A DNA stretch of 64,000 nucleotides, taken from positions 22,477 through 86,476 of the forward strand of contig JAZLII010000063.1 in the NCBI GenBank assembly GCA_045617275.1. The letters are read 5' to 3'. The stretch comes from Bacteroidaceae bacterium (GTDB lineage: Bacteria > Bacteroidota > Bacteroidia > Bacteroidales > Bacteroidaceae). Under the pieces are notes generated by a model that was not told the origin of the DNA, did not search any database, and saw only the letters and a program-made list of their open reading frames with translations. Below, piece after piece: positions 3,637 through 51,854 of the stretch (position 1 is the first letter of the stretch; the number at the start of each line of letters is the position of its first letter). The position numbers and the translations under genes were made by a program.

Positions 3637-3667
3637 GCCCGAAGGTTTGTCCCTTCGGGCTTTTTTT
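3637..3667 (+). terminator. Rho-independent terminator hairpin (GCCCGAAGG-N6-CCTTCGGGC + T7)
   Basis: Perfect 9-bp GC-rich stem followed by a T run. It is flanked upstream by an A run, so it could work in both directions. Confidence 0.7.
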
Positions 3668-3669
3668 CA

Positions 3670-3677
3670 TAATTTTG
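3670..3677 (+). promoter_or_regulatory. Bacteroidetes -7 promoter box TAATTTTG
   Basis: Matches the TAnnTTTG consensus, 27 nt upstream of the ATG at 3704. Confidence 0.45.
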
Positions 3678-3703
3678 CATCAGAAACTATAAAAAAGTAT
3701 ACC

Positions 3704-7819: not shown

Positions 7820-7832
7820 AACAATTGACACG

Positions 7833-9557
7833 GTGAAGAGCAAGAAAACACCACATATAGCAGCAAAGAGCACCGGAAACAATTCCGGTGCTACCAAGTC
7901 CAGCAAGCAGACTGAACGATCAAACAACTCTTCAAAGAAGAAGTTGCCGCTCCTTCCCATTCCCGTCCTTGCCTTCGTCCTCATATGGCTTTGGGCTTCC
8001 TGTTGCCAGGGAGATGTCTTCAGGATGGCGCGAGAGAATAGCTTTTTCGCTTTCGACAGCCTGCTCATGAACTATGAGCTATGCAAGCCACAGGGTTGGC
8101 TTTGGGCCATAGGCAGAGCGCTATTGATGCTCTTCCGATATCCATGGATCGGTGGAGCCGTACTTGCCTTCATGCTTACGATGTCTTGCTGGCTCCTTGG
8201 CTACATCTTGCGCCTCACCTCACGATGGAGATGGCTACAATGGACTCCATTGGTAGCTTACACCGGTACTGTTACCTATGCAGGCCTCAATAATTATTTT
8301 GAGGTTGAGACAGGCTACGCCATGGCCATTCCTCTTGCAGTCTTTATCCTCTTGTTAGCATTTGGTGCTATCATTCGCTTGCTTACACGCAAACCAATGC
8401 CTGCACTGGTCGGACTCGCTAAAGATGAGACATCCACTCAAAACCAACTGCAATTTGCAGTGATAGTCGTTGTAGGCCTTGCCGCCCCCATGATCTACGG
8501 AAATATGTCCCGTTCCTACGTCCGTCCCATCGCTCACATGCAGGTGGCCGTGATGGAACAAGACTGGGATGAGGTCATCAAGACAGCAGAAGCTAACGCC
8601 GAGGAGAGCTACCGCCCCTTTGCTGCTCAATACGCGATAGCACTTGTTCAGACGGGCCAGATAGCAGACCGCATGTTCAACATCCGACTGGACTACGACT
8701 CTCTTTACATAGTAGGAATGAACGGAAACCGACACGACGCGCTCAATATGTATCTTATGGAGTGCGACTACCATGCCGGATTGGTCCAGACGGCCTATCA
8801 CCATGCCATGGAGAATATGGCAATGGAAGGACCCACTTTGCGCAACCTGAAGATGCTTTGCAAGACCGCCCTTCTCAGGGGGGAATGGGAGGTAGCAGAG
8901 AAGTATCTCACCATCCTCGACAAAGTGCCTTTTGAAGGAGACTTTGTAGAGAAATACAAAGCAATGCTTCGCAACAACGACAAGATCAACGCAGATGCAG
9001 AGTTTGCAGTCGTTCGTTCCACCGAACCTCTTCGCGACAACTTCGAAAATCGTTTTATCCAACCCGTTTTCTTAGGATATACTGCTACACTTTACGAAGG
9101 ACGTTCCATCAATGCACTCTACAACAGCATGATGGTCAACATATACACAAAGACCATGCAGGAATTCCTTATGAGAAGCCAGGCCTTGGAAGGTCAGACG
9201 CCTCCCACTTGCATATCACAAGCGCTAGCCTTGATGTCGGGCAAGCAACCGGAGATCCTAAATCACTTCAATGGCGTCAACTACTATTGCGGTGACTTGC
9301 AAAGTTTCCTCGCAGAGACTCAGCAGTACATCCAACCAAGACCAGGCATAACCGAGGATGAGAAAGCAGAACTGCTCAAAATCGGCATCACGCCTTCCGG
9401 CTCAGACTCGCTGATCTCCTCGGAAAACCGCGCCCTGCATGCCAGAGCCCTTTTCCCAAAGTACAAAGGTTACTATCCCTACTACTATTTCTTCGGCAAC
9501 CTGAAAGCTACCAAGAAAAAGAATGCCACAGAGAGTTCAAGTGCGGGAGTCAACTAA
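7833..9557 (+). CDS. Polytopic membrane protein (about 6 TM) with a C-terminal TPR-like soluble domain; resembles the Bacteroidales DUF6057 family from memory
   Basis: ORF track 7746..9557. The ATG at 7746 overlaps the upstream gene by 74 nt. GTG 7833, TTG 7944 or ATG 8025 are possible starts, and only starts upstream of 8025 keep the first TM helix (LLPIPVLAFVLIWLWASCC). The family call is from memory and unverified. Confidence 0.55.
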   Translation: MKSKKTPHIAAKSTGNNSGATKSSKQTERSNNSSKKKLPLLPIPVLAFVLIWLWASCCQGDVFRMARENSFFAFDSLLMNYELCKPQGWLWAIGRALLMLFRYPWIGGAVLAFMLTMSCWLLGYILRLTSRWRWLQWTPLVAYTGTVTYAGLNNYFEVETGYAMAIPLAVFILLLAFGAIIRLLTRKPMPALVGLAKDETSTQNQLQFAVIVVVGLAAPMIYGNMSRSYVRPIAHMQVAVMEQDWDEVIKTAEANAEESYRPFAAQYAIALVQTGQIADRMFNIRLDYDSLYIVGMNGNRHDALNMYLMECDYHAGLVQTAYHHAMENMAMEGPTLRNLKMLCKTALLRGEWEVAEKYLTILDKVPFEGDFVEKYKAMLRNNDKINADAEFAVVRSTEPLRDNFENRFIQPVFLGYTATLYEGRSINALYNSMMVNIYTKTMQEFLMRSQALEGQTPPTCISQALALMSGKQPEILNHFNGVNYYCGDLQSFLAETQQYIQPRPGITEDEKAELLKIGITPSGSDSLISSENRALHARALFPKYKGYYPYYYFFGNLKATKKKNATESSSAGVN

Positions 9558-9602
9558 TAGGACAAGTATCATCTATCGTTCCGATTACCTCATAGCAATC
9601 AC

Positions 9603-11135
9603 ATGAAGAAGGTTCTATACATTATTATATTAATAGGTATGCTCATGAGTAGCTGTCAGAAGAAGGCAAGCGTGCCCTCTTCATTTCAGACACTCAGCGA
9701 ACAGGCCAACATATACCCTGACTATCGGGACGTCATCATCCCTTCCAATATCGCTCCACTCAACTTCCTCGTCAAGGATAGTCTGGCGCAAGACTTTGTG
9801 GTAGAAATGAAGGGAGAGAAAGGTGCATCGATAGTGACGGGAAATGGCGAAGGGGTCATAAAGTTCGACACCATAGCATGGCGCCAAATGCTCCAGGACA
9901 ATCGTGGCGGAAAAATCACCATATCCATCTACACCGAGCATGAAACCGGTTGGGTGAGCTACCAGCCCCACACGCTTACCGTTGCCGAGGAGGACATAGA
10001 CCCCTATCTTTCCTATCGTCTCATCGAGCCGGGCTATGAGCTCTACCGCCAGCTTGGCCTCTATCAGCGCAATCTCACCAACTGGGATGTACACACCATC
10101 TACGAGAACAACCGAACCTTCCAAAACGAAGACAACCACTGCATCAACTGCCACAACTATCAGAATTACGACACAGACCACATGCTTTTCCATGTGCGTG
10201 CCAACCATGGAGGTACGATAGTGGTTCGTGGCAACAAGGCAGAAAAGGTGATCATCAAAGATAGCACCATCATCACTTCCGGAGTATATCCCAGTTGGCA
10301 TCCCAAGCACAATTGGATTGCATTTTCTACCAACAAGACGGGCCAGACATTCCATCTCTATCACCAAGAGAGGATCGAAGTGATCGACGAAGGTAGCGAC
10401 CTGCTCTTCTACGATGCCGACAAGAATGAGGTAAGCCACATCTTCCGTACCAAGGGACAGATGGAGACCTTCCCTTGCTGGTCTCCCGATGGTAAGATGC
10501 TATATTACTGCTCTGCCGATGCATCCCCCATAGAGGAGATGCCCGACAGTCTGGCAAGCCTATGGTATCTATCCAACTGGGACAGCCTCCGCTACGATCT
10601 CATGCGCATCCCCTTTGATGAGAATACACGCACATTCGGTCCCTCGGAGATGGTCGTAGATGCAACCTCCCAAGGCAAGAGCATCAGCGTACCCCGCATC
10701 AGTCCCGATGGCAGATATGTCCTTTACACACAGGGGGACTACGGTCAGTTCCACATCTGGCACAAGAGCAGCGATCTCTGGGTAAAAGACTTACAATGCG
10801 ACACGTGCTACGCCCTCAAGGATGCCAACAGCGAGGATGTCGACAGTTACCACACATGGAGCAGTAACGGACGCTGGATCGTATTTAGCAGTCGCAGGAT
10901 GGACGGCAACTACACCCGGGCCCATATAGCCTACTTCGACAAGAATGGCAAAGCGCACAAAGCTTTCTGCCTGCCACAGGAAGATCCTCGTCACAACATC
11001 CTCCTATTGAAGAGCTACAACGTGCCGGAGCTTACAAAGAATGCAGTAAAGGTTAGCGAGGAAACACTGAAAGAGACCATCTACGGCACAGAAGGAAACC
11101 AAGCCACCTATAAAAGGAAAAAGAACATAAACTAA
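9603..11135 (+). CDS. Lipoprotein with TolB/PD40-like beta-propeller repeats and a single CxxCH heme-binding-type motif
   Basis: Lipobox LMSSC. CINCH at 10140-10154. PD40-like repeats WSPDGKMLYY, ISPDGRYVLY, WSSNGRWIVFSS. Confidence 0.6.
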   Translation: MKKVLYIIILIGMLMSSCQKKASVPSSFQTLSEQANIYPDYRDVIIPSNIAPLNFLVKDSLAQDFVVEMKGEKGASIVTGNGEGVIKFDTIAWRQMLQDNRGGKITISIYTEHETGWVSYQPHTLTVAEEDIDPYLSYRLIEPGYELYRQLGLYQRNLTNWDVHTIYENNRTFQNEDNHCINCHNYQNYDTDHMLFHVRANHGGTIVVRGNKAEKVIIKDSTIITSGVYPSWHPKHNWIAFSTNKTGQTFHLYHQERIEVIDEGSDLLFYDADKNEVSHIFRTKGQMETFPCWSPDGKMLYYCSADASPIEEMPDSLASLWYLSNWDSLRYDLMRIPFDENTRTFGPSEMVVDATSQGKSISVPRISPDGRYVLYTQGDYGQFHIWHKSSDLWVKDLQCDTCYALKDANSEDVDSYHTWSSNGRWIVFSSRRMDGNYTRAHIAYFDKNGKAHKAFCLPQEDPRHNILLLKSYNVPELTKNAVKVSEETLKETIYGTEGNQATYKRKKNIN

Positions 11136-17299: not shown

Positions 17300-17372
17300 T
17301 TGTTTTTATTTGAAACGGCAAAGCTTTGCTTTGTTTTTTTATCTTTTGATTGGTAACGTCCGATTTTATTTG

Positions 17373-17380
17373 TAATTTTG
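17373..17380 (+). promoter_or_regulatory. -7 box TAATTTTG upstream of the CotH-like gene
   Basis: TAnnTTTG match, 60 nt upstream of the ATG at 17440. Confidence 0.4.
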
Positions 17381-17439
17381 CAAAAAGCATTCCTGCGGTT
17401 CCTCTCGAGGGTCGCCCCCATACCACCACCATATTCTCC

Positions 17440-20400
17440 ATGAAAAAGCTCATCGCGATACTTTTGTTGCTTTTAGTGGCCCAAGGCATTTCGGCCCAAA
17501 GCATCTACGACAACCTAATAATCAACGAGATACAAGTTTGCAATACAGACCTTTACATCGATCCGTCCAACAATTATGGCGCATGGATAGAACTCCACAA
17601 CACGGGTACTCAGGTCATCAAACTTGCCGGCCTCTACGTCACCGACGACAAGGAGAATCCCAAGAAATTCAAGATACCTGGCAGCGTGGCCAACCTCAAA
17701 GCCGGGGCATTCCGATGCCTCTGGTTTGATCACAACCAAGCTGACGGCAACTATGGAGGCCAGTCCGACCAGCAAGTGCGCTTCAAGCCCAACGTAGAGG
17801 GTGGAGCCATCTACCTTTTCGACAGCCAAGGGAGTCAGATCTGCAAGGTGGAGTATCCTGCCGGTATCCCTCGCTGTTCGTATGCCCGAACAGAGGATGG
17901 CGGTAAGACATGGGGCACCACCGGCCAACCCACCCCGGGATCATCCAATGCAACCAGTCTTTTTGCCACGGAGCGCCTGCCCATGCCCCAACTCAACCAA
18001 GACGGAGGAGTCTTCGAACAAGGCAAAAAAGTAAGTCTCACCGTGACCATCCCCGATGGAGCCACACTGGCCTACACTACCGACGGAAGCACGCCGTCCC
18101 TGACCAATGGTGTGTGCTCCAGCGACCGTTTCACCTATCTCACTATTGAGCAGACCACCGTACTCCGCTTTGCCACATTTCAGGATGGCTTTTTGCCAAG
18201 CCCGGTAGTCACCCGCTCGTTTATCTTCAAAAATCACGACTACTACCTTCCCGTACTCTCCGTCTCTACTCATCCCGACAATCTCTTCGACAACACCATA
18301 GGCGTCTACTGCACAGGTACCAACGGCATCAGCGGCAAGGGACAGAGCGAACCCAAAAACTGGAACATGGACTGGGAGCGTCCGGTCAACATGGAGTATA
18401 TGGTCCCGGAGCAGAACACAGACGGGACGACATCTTTCATCACTTACATCAACCAAGAGGTGGACCTGGAGATATGCGGTGGATGGACGCGTGCCTACGG
18501 AGGCAACACCACTGATGGTCGCTACTGGGAGGCCAAGCCCAGCTTCCGACTCAAGACCGACAAGGAGTATGAGGGTATCAACGTGCTTGACTATCCAGTC
18601 TTCCCACACAAACCGTACAATAAATATAAGGTGTGGCAAGTGCGCAACGGTGGCAACGACACCTATGCCCGAGTTATCGATACATCCGTCAGTCAGATAG
18701 CCATACGCTCGGACTTCGACATCGACGCACAGGACTGCCAACCGGCTCATATCTTTCTCAATGGCCAGTACCTGGGTATGTTCAACATCCGCGAGAGCAA
18801 CAACCGACACTATGGCTACAGCAACTGGGGTATAGACACCGACGACATGGACCAGTTTGAGCTAGGTGGCGGCATACGCATGATGGTAGGTACGGAGGAT
18901 GCCTGGAAGGAACTGGTCAATCTTGGCTTGCAACTTTCCAAGGACCAGAGCGAGGCCACCTACCAGCAGGTGTGCGACCGTCTCTGCATAGACGAGTTCG
19001 CCAATTTCATGGCCTATGGCCTCTACCTGGGCCCCAGCGACTGGATCACCAACGTCAACAACATAAAGGCCTATCGATCACGTAGCGATGGGGGAAAATA
19101 TCGCTTTGTGCTCTTCGACCAGGATTCTTCGTTTAGCAGCGACCACATGCTCCAGAGCGTCATGAACGGCAACTACGGAGCCAACGTGGACGACCTCTTC
19201 CGCTACCTTATGTCTTATCCACCCTTCAAGAAAAAATTTGTCGATGCCTTCTGCCTAGTCGACGGAAGTCTCTTCGACCCAGAGCGCTGTGAAGAAATCG
19301 TGCAAGAGATATACAACCGTACGAACAAGGCACTCAACTTCGAGGGAAACAGTTCCAACACCGATGTTGCCAAGAAGGCTCGCAGCATGCACAACGGGTC
19401 GCGCATGACCAACATGCAAAGCGTGCTCAGTCTTCCCCAACCGTATTTTGCAGAGATAGCCAGCAACATCCCCGAGGCACAACTCATGCTGAATGGACAA
19501 ATCATCCCTACGGGAAAATTTCAGGGCTTCCTCTACCCCATAGACCAGCAGATACAACTCACCGCCCAGGCACCAGCCGGCTACACCTTCGACAGCTGGA
19601 CATTTGCAGGCAGCGACAAGGGCATCCCGACATCATCCACCGACATCATCCCCTACGGGGCCAGCTGGGAGTACTACGACCAAGGTTCCATGGACGGCAG
19701 GGGATGGCAAGGATTGGATTTCGACAGCAGTTCGCAAGGCTGGAAGTCGGGACGGGCGCCCCTGGGCTATGGCAAGTCGGGCAGCAACATCGCCAACAAG
19801 ACCGTCACCCAGCTCAGCTATGGAGGCGACAGCAACAACAAGCGCCCCACCTACTATTTCCGCTATAAGTTTGATATCGACGAACTTCCCTCAGGAGACG
19901 ATGTCTATGAGTTGCACTATAAGGTGGACGATGGATTCCGCTTCTATATCAATGGAAAGGACATTAACGGATTTCGCTGCCCAGCAGGATGCGACTACGA
20001 CTACGTCACCAACGACTGGGCTGGCGACCAGCCCGATACGGGTGTCTTTACTATCGACCCTGCAGATCTGACCTTGGGAACCAACCTACTGGCAGTCGAG
20101 GTACACAACACCTCACTCACCAGTAGCGACATCTTCTGGGATGCACAACTCTTGCACCTCACCTACGAGACCAACAGCGAGAACGGCACACTCACCAGCG
20201 AGTCGTTCAACCTGACAGAGGCCGTACCTACCGGTTCGTACATCATCACGGCACACTACAGCCCCATCACCGACCCAGAGCAACTTCTGGCAGACGGCAT
20301 CACACCGATTCGCATCAACGAGGTGTCGGCAGCCAACGACATCTACATCAACGACCTGGGCAAACGCAACGACTGGGTGGAGCTATACAACACCACAGAC

Positions 20401-21813
20401 CAGGAGATCGACGTGGCCGGCATGTACCTTAGCGACAAGGCCAAGAAGCCACAGAAATGGCAGATCACCAACATGGGGCATGAGGATGCCAGCACCGTCA
20501 TACCTCCCCATGGTACACTCGTAGTCTGGTGCGACCAGTTGGAGCCCGTCAGCCAGTTGCACGCTCCCTTCAAACTTGACAATGCCGACGGAGCATCCGT
20601 AAGCATCCAGGACCAGTACGGGCGATGGAACGACCGCCTGGACTACATGGAACAACCGCGTTGGCAAACCTTCGGCCGCTATCCTGACGGAAGCAATTTC
20701 TCCACGCTGATGACCAGGCCCACCATCGGCAGTCGCAACCTCATGGGCTTCTACGACTATACACAGGACCTGCCCTCTCAATGGGACGACGGTCTCATCC
20801 ACATCACCATCGATCTGGCTCAAGGATGGAACTGGACCAGCCACAACCTGGCAAGCGACGTGCACATCTCGCGTTTCACCTCAGTTGCGCAAGAGATAGT
20901 GGGACAGAAAAGCGCTTACAAGAAAGACCCTGAGTCGGGTGAGTGGACCGGTGGCCTTGATGGCATGGAGGCCGGACTGGGCTACAAACTCAGTTGTACC
21001 TCCCCCACCCAGGTGACTCTCCGTGGCCCTCTCTTTGCATTCTCATCCACACCAGTCGCCATAAGCAAGGGATGGAACTGGATAGGATGTCCTCTCTTCC
21101 ATGCCACCACCCTGCAGTCTGCATTGGCTCAATTCAGTCCCTCTGAGGGCGACGTCATCGTGGGCCTCGACGAGATAGCCACCTTTGAAGACGGCCAATG
21201 GGAAGGCACGCTTACCTCCGTGCAGCCAGGCCAGGGCTACCTTTACAAAAGCCAGCGTGACAATAGGCTCTACTGGAACGCGCTGAGCGAGAGCAATGCC
21301 GCTCCCCGCCAGTATCGTGCCGCTCAGGCTCGCGAATCGGAGGTATGGACCTACGACATCCATGCCTATCCTCATGTGGAGAGCCTCATCGCTACCTTGC
21401 AGACCGACAAGACCGACATGGCCACCCCGCTCCTCGTAGGTGCTTTTGCGGGCGAAGAATGTCGTGGCGTAGGTCGATGGGACGGCGAACAGTTGCTCTT
21501 CAATATACATGGAGAACAGCCAGACTCATTGACATTCAGACTTTTAGATACGGATGGAAATACCTTTACATCCAAGACCCAGTTCACCTTCCAACCTCAG
21601 ACGGTACTGGGCTCACGCTTGGCTCCCTTTGTCCTGGACTTCAATCCTCAGGACATCGAAGACCTCATCGCAACGCCCAGCATGGGAGGCAAGGTGGTGG
21701 AGCGCTCGTACTACAACCTCCAGGGCCAGCAGATGGAGTCCCCACAGGGCATCTGCATAGAGAAGTGCCTGATGTCGGATGGTAGCCTGAGGGTAAGAAA
21801 AATCCGGAAATAG
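17440..21813 (+). CDS. CotH kinase-like protein with two lamin-tail (LTD) domains and a T9SS C-terminal domain
   Basis: Signal peptide MKKLIAILLLLLVAQGISAQ at 17440. LTD-like LIINEIQVCN...WIELHNTG and IRINEVSAAN...WVELYNTT. Central CotH-like region (WERPVNMEY, FRLKTDKEYEG, VLFDQDSSF). Tail YYNLQGQQMESPQGICIEK. TAG stop. Confidence 0.8.
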   Translation: MKKLIAILLLLLVAQGISAQSIYDNLIINEIQVCNTDLYIDPSNNYGAWIELHNTGTQVIKLAGLYVTDDKENPKKFKIPGSVANLKAGAFRCLWFDHNQADGNYGGQSDQQVRFKPNVEGGAIYLFDSQGSQICKVEYPAGIPRCSYARTEDGGKTWGTTGQPTPGSSNATSLFATERLPMPQLNQDGGVFEQGKKVSLTVTIPDGATLAYTTDGSTPSLTNGVCSSDRFTYLTIEQTTVLRFATFQDGFLPSPVVTRSFIFKNHDYYLPVLSVSTHPDNLFDNTIGVYCTGTNGISGKGQSEPKNWNMDWERPVNMEYMVPEQNTDGTTSFITYINQEVDLEICGGWTRAYGGNTTDGRYWEAKPSFRLKTDKEYEGINVLDYPVFPHKPYNKYKVWQVRNGGNDTYARVIDTSVSQIAIRSDFDIDAQDCQPAHIFLNGQYLGMFNIRESNNRHYGYSNWGIDTDDMDQFELGGGIRMMVGTEDAWKELVNLGLQLSKDQSEATYQQVCDRLCIDEFANFMAYGLYLGPSDWITNVNNIKAYRSRSDGGKYRFVLFDQDSSFSSDHMLQSVMNGNYGANVDDLFRYLMSYPPFKKKFVDAFCLVDGSLFDPERCEEIVQEIYNRTNKALNFEGNSSNTDVAKKARSMHNGSRMTNMQSVLSLPQPYFAEIASNIPEAQLMLNGQIIPTGKFQGFLYPIDQQIQLTAQAPAGYTFDSWTFAGSDKGIPTSSTDIIPYGASWEYYDQGSMDGRGWQGLDFDSSSQGWKSGRAPLGYGKSGSNIANKTVTQLSYGGDSNNKRPTYYFRYKFDIDELPSGDDVYELHYKVDDGFRFYINGKDINGFRCPAGCDYDYVTNDWAGDQPDTGVFTIDPADLTLGTNLLAVEVHNTSLTSSDIFWDAQLLHLTYETNSENGTLTSESFNLTEAVPTGSYIITAHYSPITDPEQLLADGITPIRINEVSAANDIYINDLGKRNDWVELYNTTDQEIDVAGMYLSDKAKKPQKWQITNMGHEDASTVIPPHGTLVVWCDQLEPVSQLHAPFKLDNADGASVSIQDQYGRWNDRLDYMEQPRWQTFGRYPDGSNFSTLMTRPTIGSRNLMGFYDYTQDLPSQWDDGLIHITIDLAQGWNWTSHNLASDVHISRFTSVAQEIVGQKSAYKKDPESGEWTGGLDGMEAGLGYKLSCTSPTQVTLRGPLFAFSSTPVAISKGWNWIGCPLFHATTLQSALAQFSPSEGDVIVGLDEIATFEDGQWEGTLTSVQPGQGYLYKSQRDNRLYWNALSESNAAPRQYRAAQARESEVWTYDIHAYPHVESLIATLQTDKTDMATPLLVGAFAGEECRGVGRWDGEQLLFNIHGEQPDSLTFRLLDTDGNTFTSKTQFTFQPQTVLGSRLAPFVLDFNPQDIEDLIATPSMGGKVVERSYYNLQGQQMESPQGICIEKCLMSDGSLRVRKIRK

Positions 21814-21922: not shown

Positions 21923-22822
21923 TTATACCAAATGGCGGATGATATCCTCACGGTCACCGGGGAGATAGTCGATGACGGGGATCTCAATCATGGTGTACGC
22001 TCCGGGCTGCTGCTTCATAGAGGCGCGAGCCACATTGACAAGTACCTGAGCGGTCAGCGCGGGATTGTTGATCTACATGTTGAACTCGAAGAGCTGGTTG
22101 TGGGTCTGTCCACTTACACCCTTACGTACGAGGTTGACACCATGGCCCACATCGTTGAGTGCATCTACACTGTCCACCTGATATACATGGGTCTCGTCGC
22201 TTGCAAAGTAAGGATCGGCCTTGATGTCGGCAGTCACCTTCTCGAGGTCCGCACCTTCCTCCAACTCTACATATACCATACGGCGATGGATACCCTCACC
22301 GCAGGGGATGGTCATGGAGAGCGCATCCTTCACACCTTCCTTGGAGCGTACACATACGCTGTGACCCATAGAGCGGCCGGGGCCGAAATTGGTATAACTG
22401 ATACCCTTGGGAGCAAGGCTCTCCATCAGGGTGCGCACTACAGAGTCGCTTCCGGGATCCCAGCCGGCAGAGATGATGCTCACTGCACCTGCCTTCTTGG
22501 CTGCTGCATCGAGCGAGCGGCGGAGGTCACAGATCTGTCCGTGGATGTCGAAGCTGTCCACGGTATTGATACCCAGAGCCAGCATCTCGAGCGCATACTT
22601 CTCTACGCTGCGGGTGGGAGTGGCGAGGATGGCTACATCCACCTTACCCAACTCCTTGATATCCTTCACTACGGCATAGTCTGCCAACTCAGCAGGACGG
22701 TTTTCTGCACCATTGCGACGTACCACACCTACAATCTCCATATCGGGGGCTGCCTGCAAAGCCTGCAGGGTGTAACGGCCAATGTTGCCATAGCCCACGA
22801 TTGCTACCTTAATCTTACTCAT
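21923..22822 (-). pseudogene. ddh: meso-diaminopimelate D-dehydrogenase interrupted by an in-frame TAG at 22073-22075
   Basis: The track ORF 22073..22822 (249 aa, MSKIKVAIVGYGNIGRY...) ends at TAG. The same frame continues for 49 codons ([49 protein letters not shown]) to TAA at 21923-21925, giving 299 codons in total. Confidence 0.8.
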
Positions 22823-22859
22823 AATTGTCTTTAGTTTACTATTTGTCCGTTTTATGGCA

Positions 22860-22867: not shown

Positions 22868-23030
22868 ATCATTTTTTCAATACAAACCACGATTCGGTGA
22901 CATTTTTCTCTATATAGTGGCATGATTTGTAAACTCAAGTTTGTTTTAGCACCCATTTTGCACCTCCATAAGCCAACTTCCCCTCTTGCATCGCTCCTTG
23001 CATGCCATGCAGGTGCATTGCCTCGGTCAT

Positions 23031-23091
23031 GCGCATGCATCGGTCAAGTCAGGCGCATGCATCGGTCAAGCCAGGCGCATGCATGAAGCAG
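23031..23091. repeat. 22-bp tandem repeat x2.7 (GCGCATGCATCGGTCAAG[TC]CAG)
   Basis: Units at 23031-23052 and 23053-23074, partial unit at 23075-23091. Each unit starts with the palindrome GCATGC. Confidence 0.85.
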
Positions 23092-23126
23092 GTCATGGCT
23101 CTGCCTTTCGCGGTGGCTCATTAGAG

Positions 23127-23433
23127 TTTTTTCAAAAAAATGCAAACACTCTACCAAACATACACAACCACCTCAGATTCACAATGTTAACAAGGTAGAG
23201 TCTACGTCAAACACTCTACCAACACTCTACCAACACTCTACCAAGACTCTACCAGGAGGCATTCTGTTTTGCATTGAAACGATCGTCCTACAAAATGAAA
23301 AGTAGGTAGAGTGTTGGTAGAGTCTTGGTAGAGTGTTGGTAGAGACTTGAGGATTGACTCTACCTGTGTATTTAACTGATATTCTGCAATATACACCTCT
23401 TTGGTAGAGTGTTGCCCATTTTTTTCAAAAAAA
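23127..23433. repeat. About 300-bp nested palindrome built from 12 copies of ACTCTACC/GGTAGAGT, including 4+4 inverted 11-bp iterons
   Basis: Outer arms 23127-23158 and 23400-23433 (TTTTTTCAAAAAAATGCAAACACTCTACCAAA and its near-complement). Inner arms 23211-23254 (4 x ACACTCTACCA-type units) and 23305-23348 (4 x GGTAGAGTGTT-type units) are 40/44 complementary, around a 50-bp spacer. Confidence 0.85.
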
Positions 23434-23634
23434 TAGCATGCACCCCAATCCGGACCATGGGGAATAATCTGCGAGAATAGGGCAAGAGCGATGCGATATA
23501 ACATGCAGAAAAACGAACGCAGCACACCATAAAGCAAGAAATGTTTTAATTGTATTAAAAAATATAAAGAATCGTTTAGCCATGTGCGAAAACTTTTGTT
23601 ACTTTGCAGTCCGTAACAGCGCGCACATACTTTT

Positions 23635-24411
23635 ATGTACAAAAAACTTCTTTTATCCATGCTGGCAGCAACTTTTGTTGCGGTTCGTTGCCTGGCATGG
23701 GGGCAGGTGGGTCACGACACCACTTGCAAGATTGCAGAAAAGCACCTCACCAAGAAGGTGCAGGAGAAAATTTCCCAAGTCCTTGACGGCAAAAGCATCA
23801 TCTACTGGAGCAACTGGCTCGACAATGCCAGTCACCAGCCTGAGTATGCCTACGCATCCACTTGGCACTACAAGAACATCGATGCCGGACAGGCGTATGA
23901 AGAGGTAGTCCCCCTGGAGACCGGTGACGTGGTGACTGCACTCACAGAGCAGGTGGCCAAACTGAAATCTCACCGCCTGAGCCACGAAGAGGAAGCGCTG
24001 GCACTGAAGATGGTGGTTCACCTGATGGGCGACTTGCACCAGCCCATGCACCTCGGACACCTGAGCGATCTGGGAGGCAACCGGATTTACGTGGACTTCT
24101 TCAAGGAGCGCACCAACCTGCACCACGTGTGGGACGAGGACCTCGTGGAGAAAGGACACCACTGGACCTATGACGAGTGGACGGAGCAGATAGACCGCAC
24201 CACAAAGCAAGAGCAGGAGGAGATACTGAAAGGCAACTTCGATGACTGGGCCAAAGAGACCCTGGCCATCGCCACCCGTGTGTACGATGCCACTCCGGAG
24301 AACACCAAGATCAGCTATGACTATGTGGCCGAGTGGACACCCGTAGTGGAACAGCAGTTCCTCAGAGGTGGCCTCCGACTGGCCAGGATACTCAATGAGA
24401 TATACAGGTAA
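23635..24411 (+). CDS. Secreted S1/P1-family nuclease
   Basis: Signal peptide, then WGQVGH, HLMGDLHQPMHLGH and NLHHVWD. These match the zinc-ligand motifs of S1/P1 nucleases. Confidence 0.85.
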   Translation: MYKKLLLSMLAATFVAVRCLAWGQVGHDTTCKIAEKHLTKKVQEKISQVLDGKSIIYWSNWLDNASHQPEYAYASTWHYKNIDAGQAYEEVVPLETGDVVTALTEQVAKLKSHRLSHEEEALALKMVVHLMGDLHQPMHLGHLSDLGGNRIYVDFFKERTNLHHVWDEDLVEKGHHWTYDEWTEQIDRTTKQEQEEILKGNFDDWAKETLAIATRVYDATPENTKISYDYVAEWTPVVEQQFLRGGLRLARILNEIYR

Positions 24412-24459
24412 ATCGAAAGAAAACAAGAAACATATATTCATTAACCAAAAATCAACTTT

Positions 24460-27400
24460 ATGCAGAAAAAATTGCATTTGCTTTTTGCGCTGATGATGTT
24501 TGTAGCATCATCGGCCATGGCACAGATCACCACCTCTGGCCTGAGCGGTAAGATCACCGACGGCTCTGAGGAACTGATCGGTGCACGCGTAGAGGCTACC
24601 CACACGCCTTCCGGTACACGCTATGTAGCCGTGACCAACGCCAAGGGTCAGTATGCCATCAATGGTATGCGCGTCGGTGGTCCTTATGAGATCAAAGTGT
24701 CTTACATTGGCTTTGAGCCCAAGAGCGTGAATGGTATCACCCTCACCTTGGGAGAGACCTACCGCCAGAACTTCAACCTGAAGGAGAGCAGCCAAGAGTT
24801 GCAGGACATCGTGGTGACTGGTAGCAAGAGTAAGTTTGCCGGTCAGAAGACCGGTGCTGTCACCAACATCAGTGGTGAGCAGATGGCCAACATGCCTACC
24901 GTCGGTCGTAGCATCACTGAGTTTACTCGCCTCTCTCCCTACGGAGGCAACGGCATGACTTTCATGGGTCAGGATGGCCGTACAGCCAACTTCACCGTAG
25001 ACGGTGGTAACTTCAACAACGACTTCGGTCTGAGCGACGGTCTGCCCGGTGGTGGCAACCCCATCTCCATCGAGGCTATCGAGGAGATGCAGGTAGTCAT
25101 CGCTCCCATGGACGTTCGCCAGAGCGGCTTCATCGGCGGTGGTATCAACGCTATCACCAAGTCGGGTACCAACACCTTCAAGGGTAGTGCCTACGTTTAT
25201 CATCAGAATGAGAACATGCGCGGTGATGCCATCGACGGAGAGCAACTTCCTATCGCCCGCCAAAAGGATCGCAAGACTACCTACGGCTTCACCTTGGGCG
25301 GTCCTATCCTCAAGAACAAACTGTTCTTCTTCGTCAACGGTGAGTTCGCCAAGTCGCCCAACCAGGCCGTAACCTGGCGTGCATCAGAGAACGGTGTGGG
25401 CAACGAGACTGCCGGCCTCGCATACACCACCATCGAGGATATGCAGAAGGTTCAGGACTTTGCCATGAGCAAGTATGGCTACAACACCGGTTCCTACACC
25501 GACTTCCCCGCCGATGAGAAGAACAGCAAACTGCTTGCTCGCATCGACTGGAACATCAACGACAAGAACCATCTGGCTCTGCGCTACAACTACACCAGCA
25601 ACACCAACTGGATCGGCCCCAATGCCTCATCCATGGATGGCGGTGTACGCTCTGCATTCAATCGTACCTCGCTCTACTCCATGGCTTTCGCCAACTCTAT
25701 GTACTCTATGGACAACCTCGTCCACGGTGTATCTCTCGACCTGAACAGCCGCATCAACAACAACCTCAACAACCAGTTCCTGGCCACCTTCACCAAGAAG
25801 GACGACGTACGTGGTTCCAACTCTGACGAGTTCCCCTTCATTGACATCCAGGATGGCACGAACACGAACACCCAGTACATGTCTCTCGGCTACGAGCTCT
25901 TCACCTGGAACAATGCCGTCCACACCACCAACGCCACCGTCAAGGATGAGTTGACCTGGTACCTGGGCAACCACAAGATCTTTGGAGGACTCACCTATGA
26001 GTACCAGATGGACGACAACCAATACATGCGCAACGGTACTGGCTACTACCGCTATCGTAGCGTCAACGACTTCCTGAACGGCAACACCCCCGAGGTTGTC
26101 TGCCTCACTTATGGCTACGGTGGTGAGAAGTCACCTGCTGCTCGCGTACGTTACAATAAGGTAGGTCTCTACTTGCAGGACGAATGGACCGTAAACGACC
26201 GCTTCAACCTGAACTATGGTATCCGTCTGGAGTCTTTGATGTTCAACAACAAGGACCTCATGACCAACAATGCCATTCTGGCTCTCGACTACAACGGTCG
26301 CCACATCGATACCGGCAAATGGCCTTCAACCCAGATCATCGCTCAGCCTCGTGTGGGCTTCAACTGGGACGTACTGGGCAATAAGACCTTGAAAGTACGC
26401 GGTGGTTCTGGTATCTTCGCAGGCCGTCTGCCTATGGTATTCTTCACCAACATGCCCACCAATGGCGGTATGGTACAGTATCAGGCTCAGATCGGTCCCT
26501 CTATCAAGGATGCCAACCTGCCTCAGTCTGTACAGGACATGGGCTACACAAGCGTAAACTCTATCCTGCAGCAGTTCAACGCAGCCAACAACAATGGCTA
26601 TGGTCTGGCTGTGGATGCCAACGGCAAGGCTACCATAGAAGCTCTTCAGCAGAAGCTGATCGGCATGGGCTACCCCTCTGACATCACTCCCGAGAAGGGT
26701 GCTGCACCCAGCTCTATCTCTGCCGTAGATCCCAAGTTCAAGATGCCCATGATATGGAAGAACTCACTGGCCATCGAGTATACCTTGCCCGTAAGCTTCC
26801 CCATGACCATCACTGCCGAGGGTACTTTCAACAAGGATATCCACAAGGCTACCATCTCAGACTGGAGCATGATGGACGTAGAGGGCTTCACTCGCTGGAA
26901 CGGTGCTGATGCACGTCCCATCTTCCCCTCTAACTTCCGCACCACAAACAAGGCATTCGTGCTGGAGAATACCAGCAAGGGCTACAACTATTCATTCACT
27001 CTGAACATGAATGCAAGCCCCTGCAAGTTCATCGACCTCTTTGCAGCCTACACTCACACGGGTGCCAAGGAACTGACCTCACTGCCCGGTTCGGCTGCTG
27101 AGTCTGCCTTCACATACGTTCCCACCGTCAATGGTCCCAACAACATCAAGCTGCACAACGCTATCAACGTGGAGCCCGACCGCTTCATCGCAAGCATCAA
27201 CGGCCATGACAAGTCCAACAACCACTACAGCCTGATCTATGAGACCTGGCGCGGCGGTTACAACTACTCTTACATGATGGCCAACGATATGAATGGCGAT
27301 GGTTACAACTACGATGCTCTCTATATTCCTACAGACAAGCAGGTGGCCGATGGCGAGTTCCGTTTCGTAAGCAACGATGACCAGCAGCGCTTCATGGACT

Positions 27401-27786
27401 ACGTACACAACAGCAGCTACCTGAGCAAGCATCAGGGTGAGTATGCCGAGGCTTACAGCGTATACAGTCCTTGGGTACACCGTGTAGACGTGAGCTACAA
27501 GCACAACTTCAAGGTGAAGGCTGGCAAGCAGATGAACACCCTGCAGCTGGGCTTCGACATCAAGAACCTCATGAACCTCTTCTGCAACAGCTGGGGCGTA
27601 AGCAAGTACATGAATGCCAAGCTCAACTCAGGTCGCATCCTGAAGTACGAGAAGACCGATGCCGACGGCCACCCCGTATTCTCTACCCCCAAGGCTGTGG
27701 ACGGCAAGATCGAGACTTTCGGCCTCAACCATGCCATTGGCCAGTGCTGGTACATGTCAGTAGGTTTGAAGTATATGTTTAACTAA
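24460..27786 (+). CDS. TonB-dependent outer-membrane transporter, Oar-like (carboxypeptidase-regulatory-like N-domain + plug + about 900-aa barrel)
   Basis: Signal peptide. The GKITDG...GARVEATH...AKGQYAINGMRVGGPYEIKVSYIGF fold signature. Plug region. 1108 aa. No SusD-like gene follows. Confidence 0.85.
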   Translation: MQKKLHLLFALMMFVASSAMAQITTSGLSGKITDGSEELIGARVEATHTPSGTRYVAVTNAKGQYAINGMRVGGPYEIKVSYIGFEPKSVNGITLTLGETYRQNFNLKESSQELQDIVVTGSKSKFAGQKTGAVTNISGEQMANMPTVGRSITEFTRLSPYGGNGMTFMGQDGRTANFTVDGGNFNNDFGLSDGLPGGGNPISIEAIEEMQVVIAPMDVRQSGFIGGGINAITKSGTNTFKGSAYVYHQNENMRGDAIDGEQLPIARQKDRKTTYGFTLGGPILKNKLFFFVNGEFAKSPNQAVTWRASENGVGNETAGLAYTTIEDMQKVQDFAMSKYGYNTGSYTDFPADEKNSKLLARIDWNINDKNHLALRYNYTSNTNWIGPNASSMDGGVRSAFNRTSLYSMAFANSMYSMDNLVHGVSLDLNSRINNNLNNQFLATFTKKDDVRGSNSDEFPFIDIQDGTNTNTQYMSLGYELFTWNNAVHTTNATVKDELTWYLGNHKIFGGLTYEYQMDDNQYMRNGTGYYRYRSVNDFLNGNTPEVVCLTYGYGGEKSPAARVRYNKVGLYLQDEWTVNDRFNLNYGIRLESLMFNNKDLMTNNAILALDYNGRHIDTGKWPSTQIIAQPRVGFNWDVLGNKTLKVRGGSGIFAGRLPMVFFTNMPTNGGMVQYQAQIGPSIKDANLPQSVQDMGYTSVNSILQQFNAANNNGYGLAVDANGKATIEALQQKLIGMGYPSDITPEKGAAPSSISAVDPKFKMPMIWKNSLAIEYTLPVSFPMTITAEGTFNKDIHKATISDWSMMDVEGFTRWNGADARPIFPSNFRTTNKAFVLENTSKGYNYSFTLNMNASPCKFIDLFAAYTHTGAKELTSLPGSAAESAFTYVPTVNGPNNIKLHNAINVEPDRFIASINGHDKSNNHYSLIYETWRGGYNYSYMMANDMNGDGYNYDALYIPTDKQVADGEFRFVSNDDQQRFMDYVHNSSYLSKHQGEYAEAYSVYSPWVHRVDVSYKHNFKVKAGKQMNTLQLGFDIKNLMNLFCNSWGVSKYMNAKLNSGRILKYEKTDADGHPVFSTPKAVDGKIETFGLNHAIGQCWYMSVGLKYMFN

Positions 27787-27806
27787 TATTGTACAGTCAT
27801 AAGATT

Positions 27807-29411
27807 ATGAAACTCAAATATTTCTTTGGACTTTTACTGAGCATCCTCTTCATGACCGGTTGCTCTGAAGATGCCATCGTAGGCTCTCTCGACGAGATCT
27901 CTGTGGATCAGACTTTCGTTTCGATCCCTGCTGGTGGTGGTAAGGTCGTTGTAACCCTCAAGGCCGACCAGGCCTGGGAGTTCATGCCTCACTATTATAA
28001 GAATGCCGTTTATACCAAAAACGACCATCTCAATGAGATGACCGTTCTTCCCGACTGGCTGACTGCTTCCCAGGTAAGCGGAGAGACTGGCGAGACCAAG
28101 GTCGAGTTCTCTGCCAAGAGTTGTGAGTACGGTCGTGAAGCCGAAGTGATGATTCGTTGTGGCGAGAAGACTCAGTTCGTCAACGTGCGTCAGGGTTCGA
28201 TGGATGCTTCCAAAGCAACCTGTGCCGAGGTCATCGCCGGAGCTGATGGCAAGACCTACATCGCTTCCGGTACGGTAACATCCATCGCCAATACCACATA
28301 CGGCAACTGGTACCTGAATGATGGTACCGGTGAGGTATACATCTATGGTACACTCGATGCTGATGGTGCCACCAAGAACTTCACCAGCCTCGGCATCGAG
28401 GTAGGCGACGTAGTCACCGTACAGGGTCCCAAGACCACCTACGGTACCACCGTAGAGTTGGTAGACGTCACCGTACTGAAGATAGAGAAGGCCCTGCTGA
28501 AGGTTACCGAGGAGCCCAAGAGCGTAGCAAAAGAAGGCGGCGAGGCAACCTTTAAGGTAGCATACAAGGGCAGCGGTATCTTCCTGAATATCCCTGAGGA
28601 TTGTCCTTGGGTAAATCTGAAGAGCATGAACTATGTGGCAGGCGTTCCCACCAAACTGGAGAAAGCTCCCGCCGACACAGCCATCGTCACCCTATCCGTA
28701 GCCCCCAACACCGGTGCTGCACGTGCTGCCACCGTCATCGTTTCATCCAAGAAGGAGAAGAACTCGACCGACGCCAAGATCACCGTCTCTCAGGAGGGTG
28801 CCATCCAGGATGTCAACTGCGCTCAGTTCAACGCCCAGGAGGACGGTGAGGCTCAGTACAAGGTACGCGGCATCATCACCAGTATCACCAACACCACCTT
28901 TGGCAACCTCTACATCAATGATGGTACAGGTGAGGTATACGTCTACGGTATGCTCGATGCTGAAGGCAACACCAAGAACTTCCTGTCGCTGGGCCTGAAG
29001 GTAGGCGACGAGGTGGTACTGCAGAGTGTGAAGACCTCACACAACAACAGTCCTCAGATGAAGAACGCCACACTCGTATCTGTAGTGCCTCACGAGGTGA
29101 AGACCGTAGCCGAACTGAAGGCTTTGCCCGACGACAAGGATACCTACTTCCTTGTGACCGGTACCGTATGCCACGCAGAGGAGGCAAGTGCCAAGTTTGA
29201 CCTTGAGCAATATGGCAATTTCGGTCTGCAGGACGAGACCGGCACCATCTACGTCTATGGTGTAGCAGATGCTTTGAATGGCAAGACCAAGAACTTTGCA
29301 GCTACGGGCGTAAAGGAGGGTGACAAGATCACCATCCTGGCCTACAAGACCAGCTACAAGGATACCATCGAGCTGGTAGGTCAGTTCATCAAGAAAGAAA
29401 GTGCTGAGTAG
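27807..29411 (+). CDS. Surface lipoprotein: two BACON-like modules and three OB-fold-like repeats
   Basis: Lipobox FMTGC; the ATG at 27807 is preferred over the TTG at 27789. Three repeats share [YF]GN-x-Y[LI]NDGTGE[VI]Y[IV]YG-x-LDA-x-G-x-TKNF-x-SLG-x-x-VGD. Modules ending in V-x-Q-[GE]G are BACON-like. TAG stop. Confidence 0.7.
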   Translation: MKLKYFFGLLLSILFMTGCSEDAIVGSLDEISVDQTFVSIPAGGGKVVVTLKADQAWEFMPHYYKNAVYTKNDHLNEMTVLPDWLTASQVSGETGETKVEFSAKSCEYGREAEVMIRCGEKTQFVNVRQGSMDASKATCAEVIAGADGKTYIASGTVTSIANTTYGNWYLNDGTGEVYIYGTLDADGATKNFTSLGIEVGDVVTVQGPKTTYGTTVELVDVTVLKIEKALLKVTEEPKSVAKEGGEATFKVAYKGSGIFLNIPEDCPWVNLKSMNYVAGVPTKLEKAPADTAIVTLSVAPNTGAARAATVIVSSKKEKNSTDAKITVSQEGAIQDVNCAQFNAQEDGEAQYKVRGIITSITNTTFGNLYINDGTGEVYVYGMLDAEGNTKNFLSLGLKVGDEVVLQSVKTSHNNSPQMKNATLVSVVPHEVKTVAELKALPDDKDTYFLVTGTVCHAEEASAKFDLEQYGNFGLQDETGTIYVYGVADALNGKTKNFAATGVKEGDKITILAYKTSYKDTIELVGQFIKKESAE

Positions 29412-29442
29412 GATATAGATTTTACTCAAGCATATATCATCA

Positions 29443-29479
29443 AGCAGGCTTCGTCATTGGGTCGAAGCCTGCTCTTTTT
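29443..29479 (+). terminator. Rho-independent terminator ending the nuclease/TBDT/lipoprotein operon
   Basis: AGCAGGCTTCG-N9-CGAAGCCTGCT followed by CTTTTT. Confidence 0.7.
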
Positions 29480-51780: not shown

Positions 51781-51854
51781 TAGCGGGGCCGGGGATTGAA
51801 CCCGGGACCTCATGATTATGAATCATGCGCTCTAACCAGCTGAGCTACCCCGCC
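51781..51854 (-). tRNA. tRNA with anticodon CAT (Met; a lysidine-modified Ile2 cannot be excluded)
   Basis: Manual cloverleaf fold: GGCGGGG / TA / GCTC-AGCTGGTTA-GAGC / G / CATGA-TTCATAA-TCATG / AGGTC / CCGGG-TTCAATC-CCCGG / CCCCGCT-A. 74 nt, with no encoded CCA. Confidence 0.85.

Follow-up and report, generated by a model that had tools for sequence, protein, structure and literature searches.

We analyzed a 64,000-nucleotide stretch of contig JAZLII010000063.1 (assembly GCA_045617275.1, a Bacteroidaceae bacterium), here called the window, and in particular a three-gene operon that encodes an S1/P1-type nuclease, an Oar-like TonB-dependent transporter (TBDT) and a surface lipoprotein. An earlier note, made from the letters of the DNA alone, had proposed that the three genes form a system for the capture and uptake of extracellular nucleic acids. 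The genes and their presumed signals are as follows.

23600..23606, + strand: promoter-like Bacteroidota -7 box TACTTTG, a putative assignment made by reading the sequence
23635-24411, + strand: gene 1, S1/P1 nuclease, 258 aa
24460-27786, + strand: gene 2, Oar-like TBDT, 1108 aa
27807-29411, + strand: gene 3, surface lipoprotein, 534 aa counted from the ATG
29443-29479, + strand: intrinsic terminator ending the operon, an 11-bp G+C-rich stem followed by a U-run

All three open reading frames (ORFs) are co-oriented on the + strand, with gaps of 48 nt between genes 1 and 2 and 20 nt between genes 2 and 3 (the mechanical ORF of gene 3 begins upstream, at TTG 27789), and the operon spans 5,777 bp. 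The layout and the single strong terminator described in the earlier note proved correct: the terminator folds at -20.7 kcal/mol (z = -5.63), and 0 of 200 shuffled sequences folded equally well. A consensus terminator scan did not pick up this hairpin, presumably because its loop exceeds the 8-nt limit of the scan. The TACTTTG box lies 29 nt 5' of the nuclease ATG, and in L082, a more distant relative of the locus, a canonical TAnnTTTG box (TACCTTTG) occupies the corresponding position 5' of the S1/P1 gene; the sigma-70 model used for promoter scanning does not apply to Bacteroidota. The operon is bordered by a diaminopimelate dehydrogenase (DAPDH) gene on the opposite strand and by an MGS/AICARFT-like gene followed by mreB.

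Gene 1 matched the Pfam family S1-P1_nuclease (PF02265) over its full length (191.4 bits against a cutoff of 29.5, E = 3.5e-56), with residues 22-257 corresponding to model positions 1-257 of 258. It opens with a type-I signal peptide (23635-23697, + strand), so that the mature enzyme starts at Trp22, and it carries the zinc-ligand motifs WGQVGH (mature residues 1-6), WLD, WHY, HLMGDLHQPMH and NLHHVWD, in agreement with the earlier reading. When the PDB S1/P1 chains 8qjl, 4cxo, 5fb9 and 1ak0 were aligned with the protein, their residue 1 fell on Trp22 and the metal-ligand motifs were kept (WGxxGH, WxD, WHY, HLxGDxHQPxH and NLHxxWD across the family, the same motifs being present in 8qjl and 4cxo). 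Cleavage by signal peptidase I after Ala21 would thus expose an N-terminal Trp, the family's metal ligand. Gene 1 shares its full-length Pfam match, the mature N-terminal Trp and the His/Asp metal ligands with the characterized S1/P1 enzymes (P1, 1AK0; S1, 5FB9; the plant enzymes 4CXO and 3SNG; the bacterial enzyme 8QJL). It differs from the solved members in its low sequence identity to them (best E = 1e-23) and in its operon link to a TBDT, and we know of no such context described for a characterized S1/P1 enzyme. The single-strand specificity of the family is established, as is its conversion of single strands to mononucleotides.

The earlier note had called this nuclease secreted. The signal peptide is indeed present, but on inspection the sequence has no lipobox, no C-terminal extension and no type IX secretion system (T9SS) C-terminal domain. 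Because the signal peptide is of type I and neither a lipobox nor a T9SS domain accompanies it, the enzyme is probably periplasmic, acting as a processing enzyme, rather than surface-exposed or secreted. A 274-aa antisense ORF (window 23653-24477, - strand) spans the whole nuclease gene and is longer than it; this ORF is probably spurious.

Gene 2 is divided as follows.

24541-24783, + strand: CarboxypepD_reg domain (Pfam, 65.6 bits, E = 5e-18), with a signal peptide ahead of it
24805-24822, + strand: TonB-box-like DIVVTG, residues 116-121, read by eye
about 24862-25152, + strand: plug-like segment, a sub-threshold match to Pfam Plug
25153-27783, + strand: beta-barrel, Pfam OMP_b-brl_4

The barrel matched OMP_b-brl_4 at 156 bits (cutoff 30, E = 1.4e-45) and TonB_dep_Rec_b-barrel weakly, slightly below the cutoff (25.3 bits against 27, E = 1.7e-5). 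Profile searches with Pfam and NCBIfam thus agreed with the previous description of a 1108-aa TBDT that has a CarboxypepD_reg domain and no SusD partner. No PDB sequence matched gene 2 at E <= 0.001. The CarboxypepD_reg and OMP_b-brl_4 domains also underlie its presumed likeness to Oar of Myxococcus xanthus.

Gene 3 has the architecture BACON-OB-BACON-OB-OB, where OB stands for the oligonucleotide/oligosaccharide-binding fold.

27894-28193, + strand: BACON1, residues 30-129
28209-28487, + strand: OB1, residues 135-227
28497-28793, + strand: BACON2, residues 231-329
28806-29087, + strand: OB2, residues 334-427
29106-29396, + strand: OB3, residues 434-530

That the protein is a lipoprotein with two BACON modules was confirmed. 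Its lipobox cysteine, Cys19, was invariant among 47 homologs (consensus GCSED), and the S-E-D that follows it fits the C(x)(D/E)(D/E) surface-export motif as used in PMC12478041. The whole protein matched BACON (PF13004) at 47.2 bits (E = 2.2e-12). Searched alone, module 2 scored 27.8 bits and module 1 scored 23.6 bits against a cutoff of 25, and both are beta-sandwiches in the AlphaFold2 model.

We modelled the full-length lipoprotein with AlphaFold2 from an alignment of the 47 homologs (pLDDT 87) and OB2-OB3 alone (pLDDT 95.9, pTM 0.90). With the full-length model, Ig-like multi-domain arrays dominated the Foldseek hits, and the OB2-OB3 sub-model was used instead. Its neighbors in the PDB were Teb1 AB (4.8e-8), the p204 HIN-dsDNA complex (HINab, 8e-6) and RPA (RPA70, 2.8e-5), with p204 HIN1, POT1, SSB, the anticodon-binding OB domain of LysRS, Stn1/CST and RMI2 as further matches; no carbohydrate-binding module was among the 50 hits listed. 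As modelled, then, the three repeats, which had looked OB-like by eye, are nucleic-acid-type OB folds and not the carbohydrate-binding fold that the earlier note had named as the outcome that would count against it. The lipoprotein family profile matched RPA32 in the PDB at E = 0.012, and source annotations of family members include 'DNA-binding protein', 'RPA family protein' and, for one member in JGI/IMG, 'YhcR'. The OB domains carry an aromatic motif, Y-G-N-W/F-Y, in which Y165, G166 and N167 are invariant. Around G-D-x-V-x-V-x-G...Y...EL they resemble the OB modules of ExeM/NucH/YhcR-type nucleases, but here the modules are not fused to a catalytic domain and form a stand-alone lipoprotein encoded with a transporter.

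The operon resembles the polysaccharide utilization loci (PULs) of the SusC/SusD type in that it combines a TBDT with a surface-binding protein and a degrading enzyme; export of lipoproteins to the surface and the presence of BACON modules are typical of those loci too. It differs from them in several respects. No glycoside hydrolase or other carbohydrate-active enzyme (CAZyme) and no SusD-like gene was found in or adjoining the operon by Pfam searches and inspection of the neighbors, gene 3 had no SusD-like Pfam match, gene 2 matched no NCBIfam SusC/RagA model, and the operon contains no hybrid two-component or extracytoplasmic function (ECF) regulator. The previous description of a PUL-like layout with a nuclease in place of the glycoside hydrolase was therefore borne out by the profile searches.

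To see which parts of the locus are conserved, we scanned an alignment of the lipoprotein against one genome per GTDB species, which returned at least 529 relatives; the best 80 are the loci L002-L081. The sampled taxa include Prevotella, Segatella copri, Xylanibacter, Alistipes, Muribaculaceae, Proteiniphilum, Petrimonas, Prolixibacteraceae, Mariniphaga, Carboxylicivirga and others, and the lipoprotein family comprised 511 clusters at 50% identity (E <= 1e-30). Wherever the 80 loci included upstream DNA, the gene directly upstream of the lipoprotein gene encoded a TBDT with 53-90% identity to gene 2, usually at a distance of 15-30 nt. S1/P1 genes adjoined the pair at L003 and L009 alone among the 80 loci, in both cases 3' of the lipoprotein gene. 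The TBDT and the lipoprotein are thus the conserved unit, and the nuclease is an exchangeable accessory. The synteny of all three genes, for which the earlier note proposed a check, holds for this pair but is not broadly conserved for S1/P1, which the closest relative also lacks. In three loci (L020, L052 and L064) a second TBDT, 46-48% identical to gene 2, adjoins the core pair, and in L052 the gene after it encodes a 701-aa protein without a Pfam match; the second TBDT may be a sister transporter subtype with a different partner.

We then examined the nucleases next to the pair, using tblastn with catalytic-domain references only and not ORF calls, because the longest-ORF caller had chosen the 274-aa antisense ORF over the nuclease gene. 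A co-oriented nuclease lay within 2.5 kb in 16 of the 49 loci that had at least 2.5 kb on both sides. Since a genome holds only a handful of such nuclease genes, this proximity (33%) would be an enrichment of tens of fold, the background of a few genes per genome being an estimate and not a measurement. Endonuclease_1 was found beside the pair in L069, L078, L080 and L043 (Prevotella; once only 13 nt downstream), and a fusion of Endonuclease_1 with DUF5689 and a T9SS sorting domain in L065 (11625-13520), L046, L068 and L081 (Prolixibacteraceae, Mariniphaga). Endonuclease_NS, sometimes with BACON, was followed by Exo_endo_phos_3, an endonuclease/exonuclease/phosphatase (EEP) family nuclease, in L010, L014, L028 and L064, while L062 (4504-6588) and L020 have a BACON+DUF5689+Endonuclease_NS protein upstream and two 5'-nucleotidases downstream. 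S1/P1 is therefore one of at least four interchangeable, unrelated nuclease families at these loci, to which nucleotidases are added. Because DUF5689 is fused to nucleases inside orthologous loci, it behaves as a transferable module, carried by nucleases in some cases and standing alone as a TBDT partner in others. Within the S. copri group, several genomes have Endonuclease_NS about 85 nt 3' of the lipoprotein gene (L047, L063 and L075), and at that position the complete genome of strain HDD05 (L060) carries a TBDT paralog of 32% identity instead of a nuclease.

The S1/P1 genes themselves were found to track the transporter. Among sampled homologs at 62% identity or more, five of six adjoin this type of TBDT, in two gene orders and in different contexts; the stand-alone homologs comprise one at 72% identity and two at 56-59%. 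Because five of the six lie beside the TBDT and the homologs at 56-59% stand alone, this S1/P1 sub-clade is specifically linked to the transporter. At L087 (3651-7777) a gap of 14 nt separates a TBDT of this family (54.5% identity) from an S1/P1 gene (62%) downstream of it, with no lipoprotein gene between them, a natural variant without the OB binder.

The earlier note knew of no characterized Bacteroidales system of this composition, a statement that did not survive comparison with the literature: TBDT-centered DNA-utilization loci are already known, and the operon, real and coherent as it is, is not unprecedented. Sharan et al. (PNAS 2025; PMC12478041) found that B. thetaiotaomicron needs ddbABCDEF to deplete exogenous DNA. 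The products of this locus are three nucleases, DdbC (the TBDT), DdbD (a DUF5689 protein that as modelled looks like the p202 HIN domain) and DdbE; the authors note the PUL-like logic and relate DdbCD evolutionarily to RA0C_RS04915/04920 of Riemerella anatipestifer, which Huang et al. (2021; PMC8459023) showed to be needed for natural transformation. DdbB, a nuclease with a type-I signal, is given a periplasmic role in oligonucleotide processing, and the main text names neither BACON, OB folds nor S1/P1 (PMC12478041). The BT3560-3563 operon of B. thetaiotaomicron VPI-5482, which is of the ddb type, is accompanied by a BACON protein in variant strains, and its DNase BT3563 acts in bile-dependent biofilm formation (Bechon et al. 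2022; PMC8851478).

The window locus shares much with ddb. Both follow PUL-like logic with nucleases in the place of glycosidases, and both place a surface partner with a HIN/OB-like fold after the TBDT; nucleases with type-I and type-II signals, strain-level variation of the nucleases, and DUF5689 and BACON domains are found in the ddb family and in the relatives' loci alike. The p204 HIN-dsDNA match of OB2-OB3 is of the fold class to which Sharan et al. also assign DdbD. A nuclease is part of the locus in both cases, here an S1/P1 enzyme 48 nt upstream of the TBDT, with other families in the orthologous loci. Unlike ddb, the window locus has three genes instead of six, its nuclease is of the S1/P1 type, and its binder is BACON-OB-BACON-OB-OB. 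Gene 3 is not a DUF5689 protein: neither the whole protein nor its separate domains matched Pfam DUF5689 even at E <= 10, and HHalign against DUF5689 segments, including Endonuclease I fusion proteins, gave only a weak match (probability 39%, E = 3e-4). As a tandem-OB protein with a HIN-like fold directly 3' of the TBDT, it would be a functional analogue of DdbD.

Taken together, these observations make it probable that the operon is a compact ddb-type nucleic-acid utilization locus in a Prevotella-like gut bacterium. We infer the ligand, the direction of transport, the physical complex of TBDT and lipoprotein, the location of the nuclease and each step that follows from anatomy and genomic context. 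The lipoprotein would be exported to the cell surface by virtue of its type-II signal peptide and of Cys19 with S-E-D, and its two BACON spacers would hold the three OB domains off the membrane, where they would capture nucleic-acid fragments, probably single-stranded DNA (ssDNA) or RNA oligonucleotides. It would sit on the Oar-like TBDT as a substrate-binding partner, in the role of SusD or DdbD, and pass the ligand into the barrel for TonB-energized import. The S1/P1 enzyme, its catalytic N-terminal Trp created by signal cleavage, would most likely stay in the periplasm or in the lumen of outer-membrane vesicles and degrade the single-stranded oligonucleotides that come in to 5'-mononucleotides, which would be salvaged or catabolized. 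That S1/P1 acts specifically on single strands, together with the RPA/Teb1/POT1-like neighbors of the OB domains, hints at RNA or ssDNA as the cargo. Of the capture and uptake first proposed, uptake is strongly backed by the comparative genomics, and the interpretation, sound in its main idea, is as a whole supported in part.

Several findings weigh against this reading. The closest relative, whose TBDT and lipoprotein are 90% and 86% identical to those of the window and whose flanking genes are the same, lacks S1/P1, and two thirds of the loci have no nuclease detectable by the reference set within 2.5 kb. The Plug match of gene 2 is sub-threshold (16.9 bits against a cutoff of 23.9, E = 0.0093) and appeared only when residues about 110-257 were searched in isolation. 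The Pfam OB families are sub-threshold on gene 3 (tRNA_anti-codon, 23 against 27 bits; also RMI2 and CDC24_OB3), and the best single-domain overlay by target TM-score was YgiW, a periplasmic OB protein for which we know of no nucleic-acid ligand; OB folds can bind oligosaccharides or small ligands too. All three OB domains are acidic (pI 4.3-5.2), also across the 47 homologs, and for the mature lipoprotein the net charge is about -21, in the homologs as in the window protein. Such acidity is atypical of non-specific DNA binders and leaves either cation-bridged or stacking-based binding or another ligand. The periplasmic location of the nuclease, finally, is read from its signal-peptide type alone.

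As to the closest relative, it has 225 bp in place of window 22883-24457. The more distant L082 keeps the exact gene order of the window (DAPDH, then S1/P1-TBDT-lipoprotein, then MGS-mreB), so that this lineage probably had the nuclease originally, the closest relative having lost it by deletion.

The acidity and the missing nucleases bear on an alternative in which what the pair imports is not nucleic acid but, for example, a glycan, peptide or cofactor, with OB domains that bind oligosaccharides or small ligands and an adjacent nuclease that is incidental. The acidic OB domains, the YgiW-like single-domain match, the sub-threshold Pfam OB scores and the fact that most loci have no detected nuclease all fit this alternative, as does the BACON domain, which was originally proposed to be carbohydrate-associated. 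However, the pair has no consistent link to any CAZyme or peptidase, while it does have one to four nuclease families and to nucleotidases, and the 33% co-occurrence within 2.5 kb is far above chance on the estimated background. DUF5689, the domain of DdbD, is fused to nucleases in the same loci, and S1/P1 genes at 62% identity or more track the TBDT. We therefore consider a different ligand unlikely.

The earlier note had itself offered export as a second possibility, in which the S1/P1 nuclease would leave the cell through the Oar-like TBDT, as the protease PopC reportedly does through Oar in Myxococcus. An architecture of CarboxypepD_reg plus OMP_b-brl_4 and a nuclease that has a Sec signal only and is encoded immediately upstream would suit such a role, but there is no protease cargo here, and the partner that is invariant is a surface OB-fold protein, which on its BACON spacers suits capture and not export. 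The pair is kept without S1/P1 in 78 of the 80 species loci, and without any nuclease of the reference set in most of them; the closest relative retained the pair and lost the nuclease; and the nucleases found at these loci are unrelated to one another, often having lipoprotein or T9SS export signals of their own. Because the pair persists without a nuclease in most genomes and the nucleases have independent, varied export signals, we regard export as very improbable.

If the nuclease were instead the business end of the locus, the operon might serve to remodel extracellular DNA of the matrix or the host, for example in biofilms or in escape from neutrophil extracellular traps, with the TBDT in a minor or scavenging role. 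BT3560-3563 does affect biofilm through its DNase (PMC8851478), and relatives of the window locus carry surface or T9SS-secreted nucleases. The sole nuclease in the window, by contrast, has no surface-export signal, the invariant parts are the transporter and the binder rather than the nuclease, and the periplasmic-type 5'-nucleotidases at some loci point to assimilation. Remodelling, too, seems improbable to us.

The Riemerella system suggests a further possibility, that TBDT and OB lipoprotein import long DNA for recombination, as in natural transformation, and not for nutrition. The architecture is the same, with a CarboxypepD_reg TBDT (RA0C_RS04915) followed by a surface protein with a putative DNA-binding role or fold and a nuclease gene adjacent (PMC8459023), and Sharan et al. 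hold the ddb loci to be related to that system (PMC12478041). The Riemerella locus differs in its outcome, transformation, in its partner (RA0C_RS04920 is a DUF5689+DUF5017 protein) and in belonging to the Flavobacteriales, and we liken the two by description and not by alignment. Against transformation, the loci examined here recruit degradative endonucleases, EEP nucleases, 5'-nucleotidases and S1/P1, and no competence gene such as comEC or dprA was noticed beside the operon in the window. We hold this explanation to be quite improbable, and we return to nucleic-acid utilization as the favored one.

Within a utilization reading, the question is how closely the locus belongs to ddb itself. 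Membership in the ddb family is assigned by a TBDT with >50% identity and >75% coverage to WP_008762511.1 (Bt1), WP_055220680.1 (Bt2), WP_005843284.1 (Pv1) or WP_117829583.1 (Pv2), and its subtypes Bt1, Bt2, Pv1 and Pv2, one of them without a secreted nuclease, are told apart by DdbC identity; Pv1 and Pv2 share 'less than 50%' identity, and the example locus of Pv2 measures 5,767 bp (PMC12478041). On circumstantial grounds we lean towards the view that the window locus is a ddb locus of this 'Pv-type', because this TBDT family is widespread in Bacteroidales, because the 46-48% identical paralogs mirror the relation of Pv1 to Pv2, and because of the lengths of 5,767 and 5,777 bp. The strain-level presence and absence of a nuclease in S. 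copri also resembles the Pv1/Pv2 pattern of the ddb paper. Two protein-cluster look-ups led only to Prevotella, Paraprevotella, Hallella, Xylanibacter and metagenome-assembled genomes, Prevotella-like sequences filled the top 120 homologs, and neither set reached Phocaeicola or Bacteroides. Since the binder is not a DUF5689 protein and the TBDT stands unaligned with the reference DdbC, we did not file the locus as a member of ddb.

A bolder and more doubtful proposal, which we put forward tentatively, is that the BACON-OB lipoprotein and its TBDT constitute a second, very widespread class of nucleic-acid importer, distinct from the DUF5689-based DdbCD/Riemerella type and specialized for RNA or ssDNA oligonucleotides. 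The breadth of the class would be that of the family described above, at least 529 species genomes and 511 clusters at 50% identity. Specialization for single strands would account for the existence of a dedicated S1/P1 sub-clade, for OB domains like those of RPA, Teb1 and POT1 and for an acidic, stacking-based binding surface. If this proposal were true, Bacteroidales of the gut and the rumen would possess a pathway devoted to the scavenging of RNA and ssDNA that lies beyond the 2025 ddb work.

In the gut and the rumen, nucleic acids supply phosphorus, nitrogen and nucleobases in abundance, and their breakdown products, among them uracil, xanthine and nucleosides, affect the host. That Bacteroides take up DNA by means of a TBDT-centered locus was established by the 2025 ddb work. 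The present analysis adds an invariant core of similar loci across many Bacteroidales families that consists of a differently built binder (BACON-OB x3) and a highly conserved TBDT, around which nuclease modules are swapped in and out. The core pair may serve as a simple genomic marker of nucleic-acid scavenging capacity in Prevotella-rich microbiomes, and the natural presence and absence variants would suit tests of the contribution of each nuclease. It is also a tractable candidate for a first biochemical definition of a transporter's cargo, whether ssDNA, double-stranded DNA or RNA, and of its length.

Several other features of the window were recorded. No PADLOC defence model matched any of the three operon proteins, and Rfam gave no regulatory RNA near the operon, its sole match being a tRNA at 51781-51854. 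A nested palindromic element of about 306 bp (window 23127-23432, within 22883-23634) lies 5' of the nuclease gene. Its outer arms are TTTTTTCAAAAAAATGCAAACACTCTACCAAA and its complement, and its inner arms are 3-4 tandem 11-mers (AACACTCTACC) that face inverted copies; folded as single-stranded DNA it reaches -74 kcal/mol (z = -11.5), and it occurs once in the window. The element is absent from L002 and from L082, where the intergenic region is just 244 bp. Its 11-bp phasing could reflect an operator array or an insertion resembling a miniature inverted-repeat transposable element (MITE). A recognizable, widespread mobile element was ruled out by searches that gave 0 matches in the fetched loci and one unrelated match in JGI metagenomes. 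A second direct repeat (gcatgcatcggtcaag.caggc) is present in two copies at about 23028-23085.

The protein encoded by the neighboring DAPDH gene (window 21923-22825, - strand) is 98.7% identical to its ortholog in L002 and is truncated to 249 aa by an in-frame stop (FEFNM*INNP, compared with FEFNMKINNP in L002), which stems either from a nonsense mutation of recent date or from an error in sequencing. Beyond it, window 17350-21813 (+ strand) encodes a 1487-aa protein with two lamin-tail domains, a CotH kinase domain and CHB_HEX_C, which is kept beside the locus in L002; lamin-tail domains are also known in ExeM/NucH-type extracellular nucleases. A 1176-aa ORF at 22-3552 was tested as a possible TBDT paralog and is not a TBDT. 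Between them, at window 3647-11135, lie genes for a 1390-aa M60-like peptidase that bears a ricin-type lectin domain, for a DUF6057 protein and for a protein with PD40 repeats, and the DUF6057-PD40 pair is also found 3' of a 33%-identical Oar-like TBDT paralog in the Prevotellaceae locus L078.

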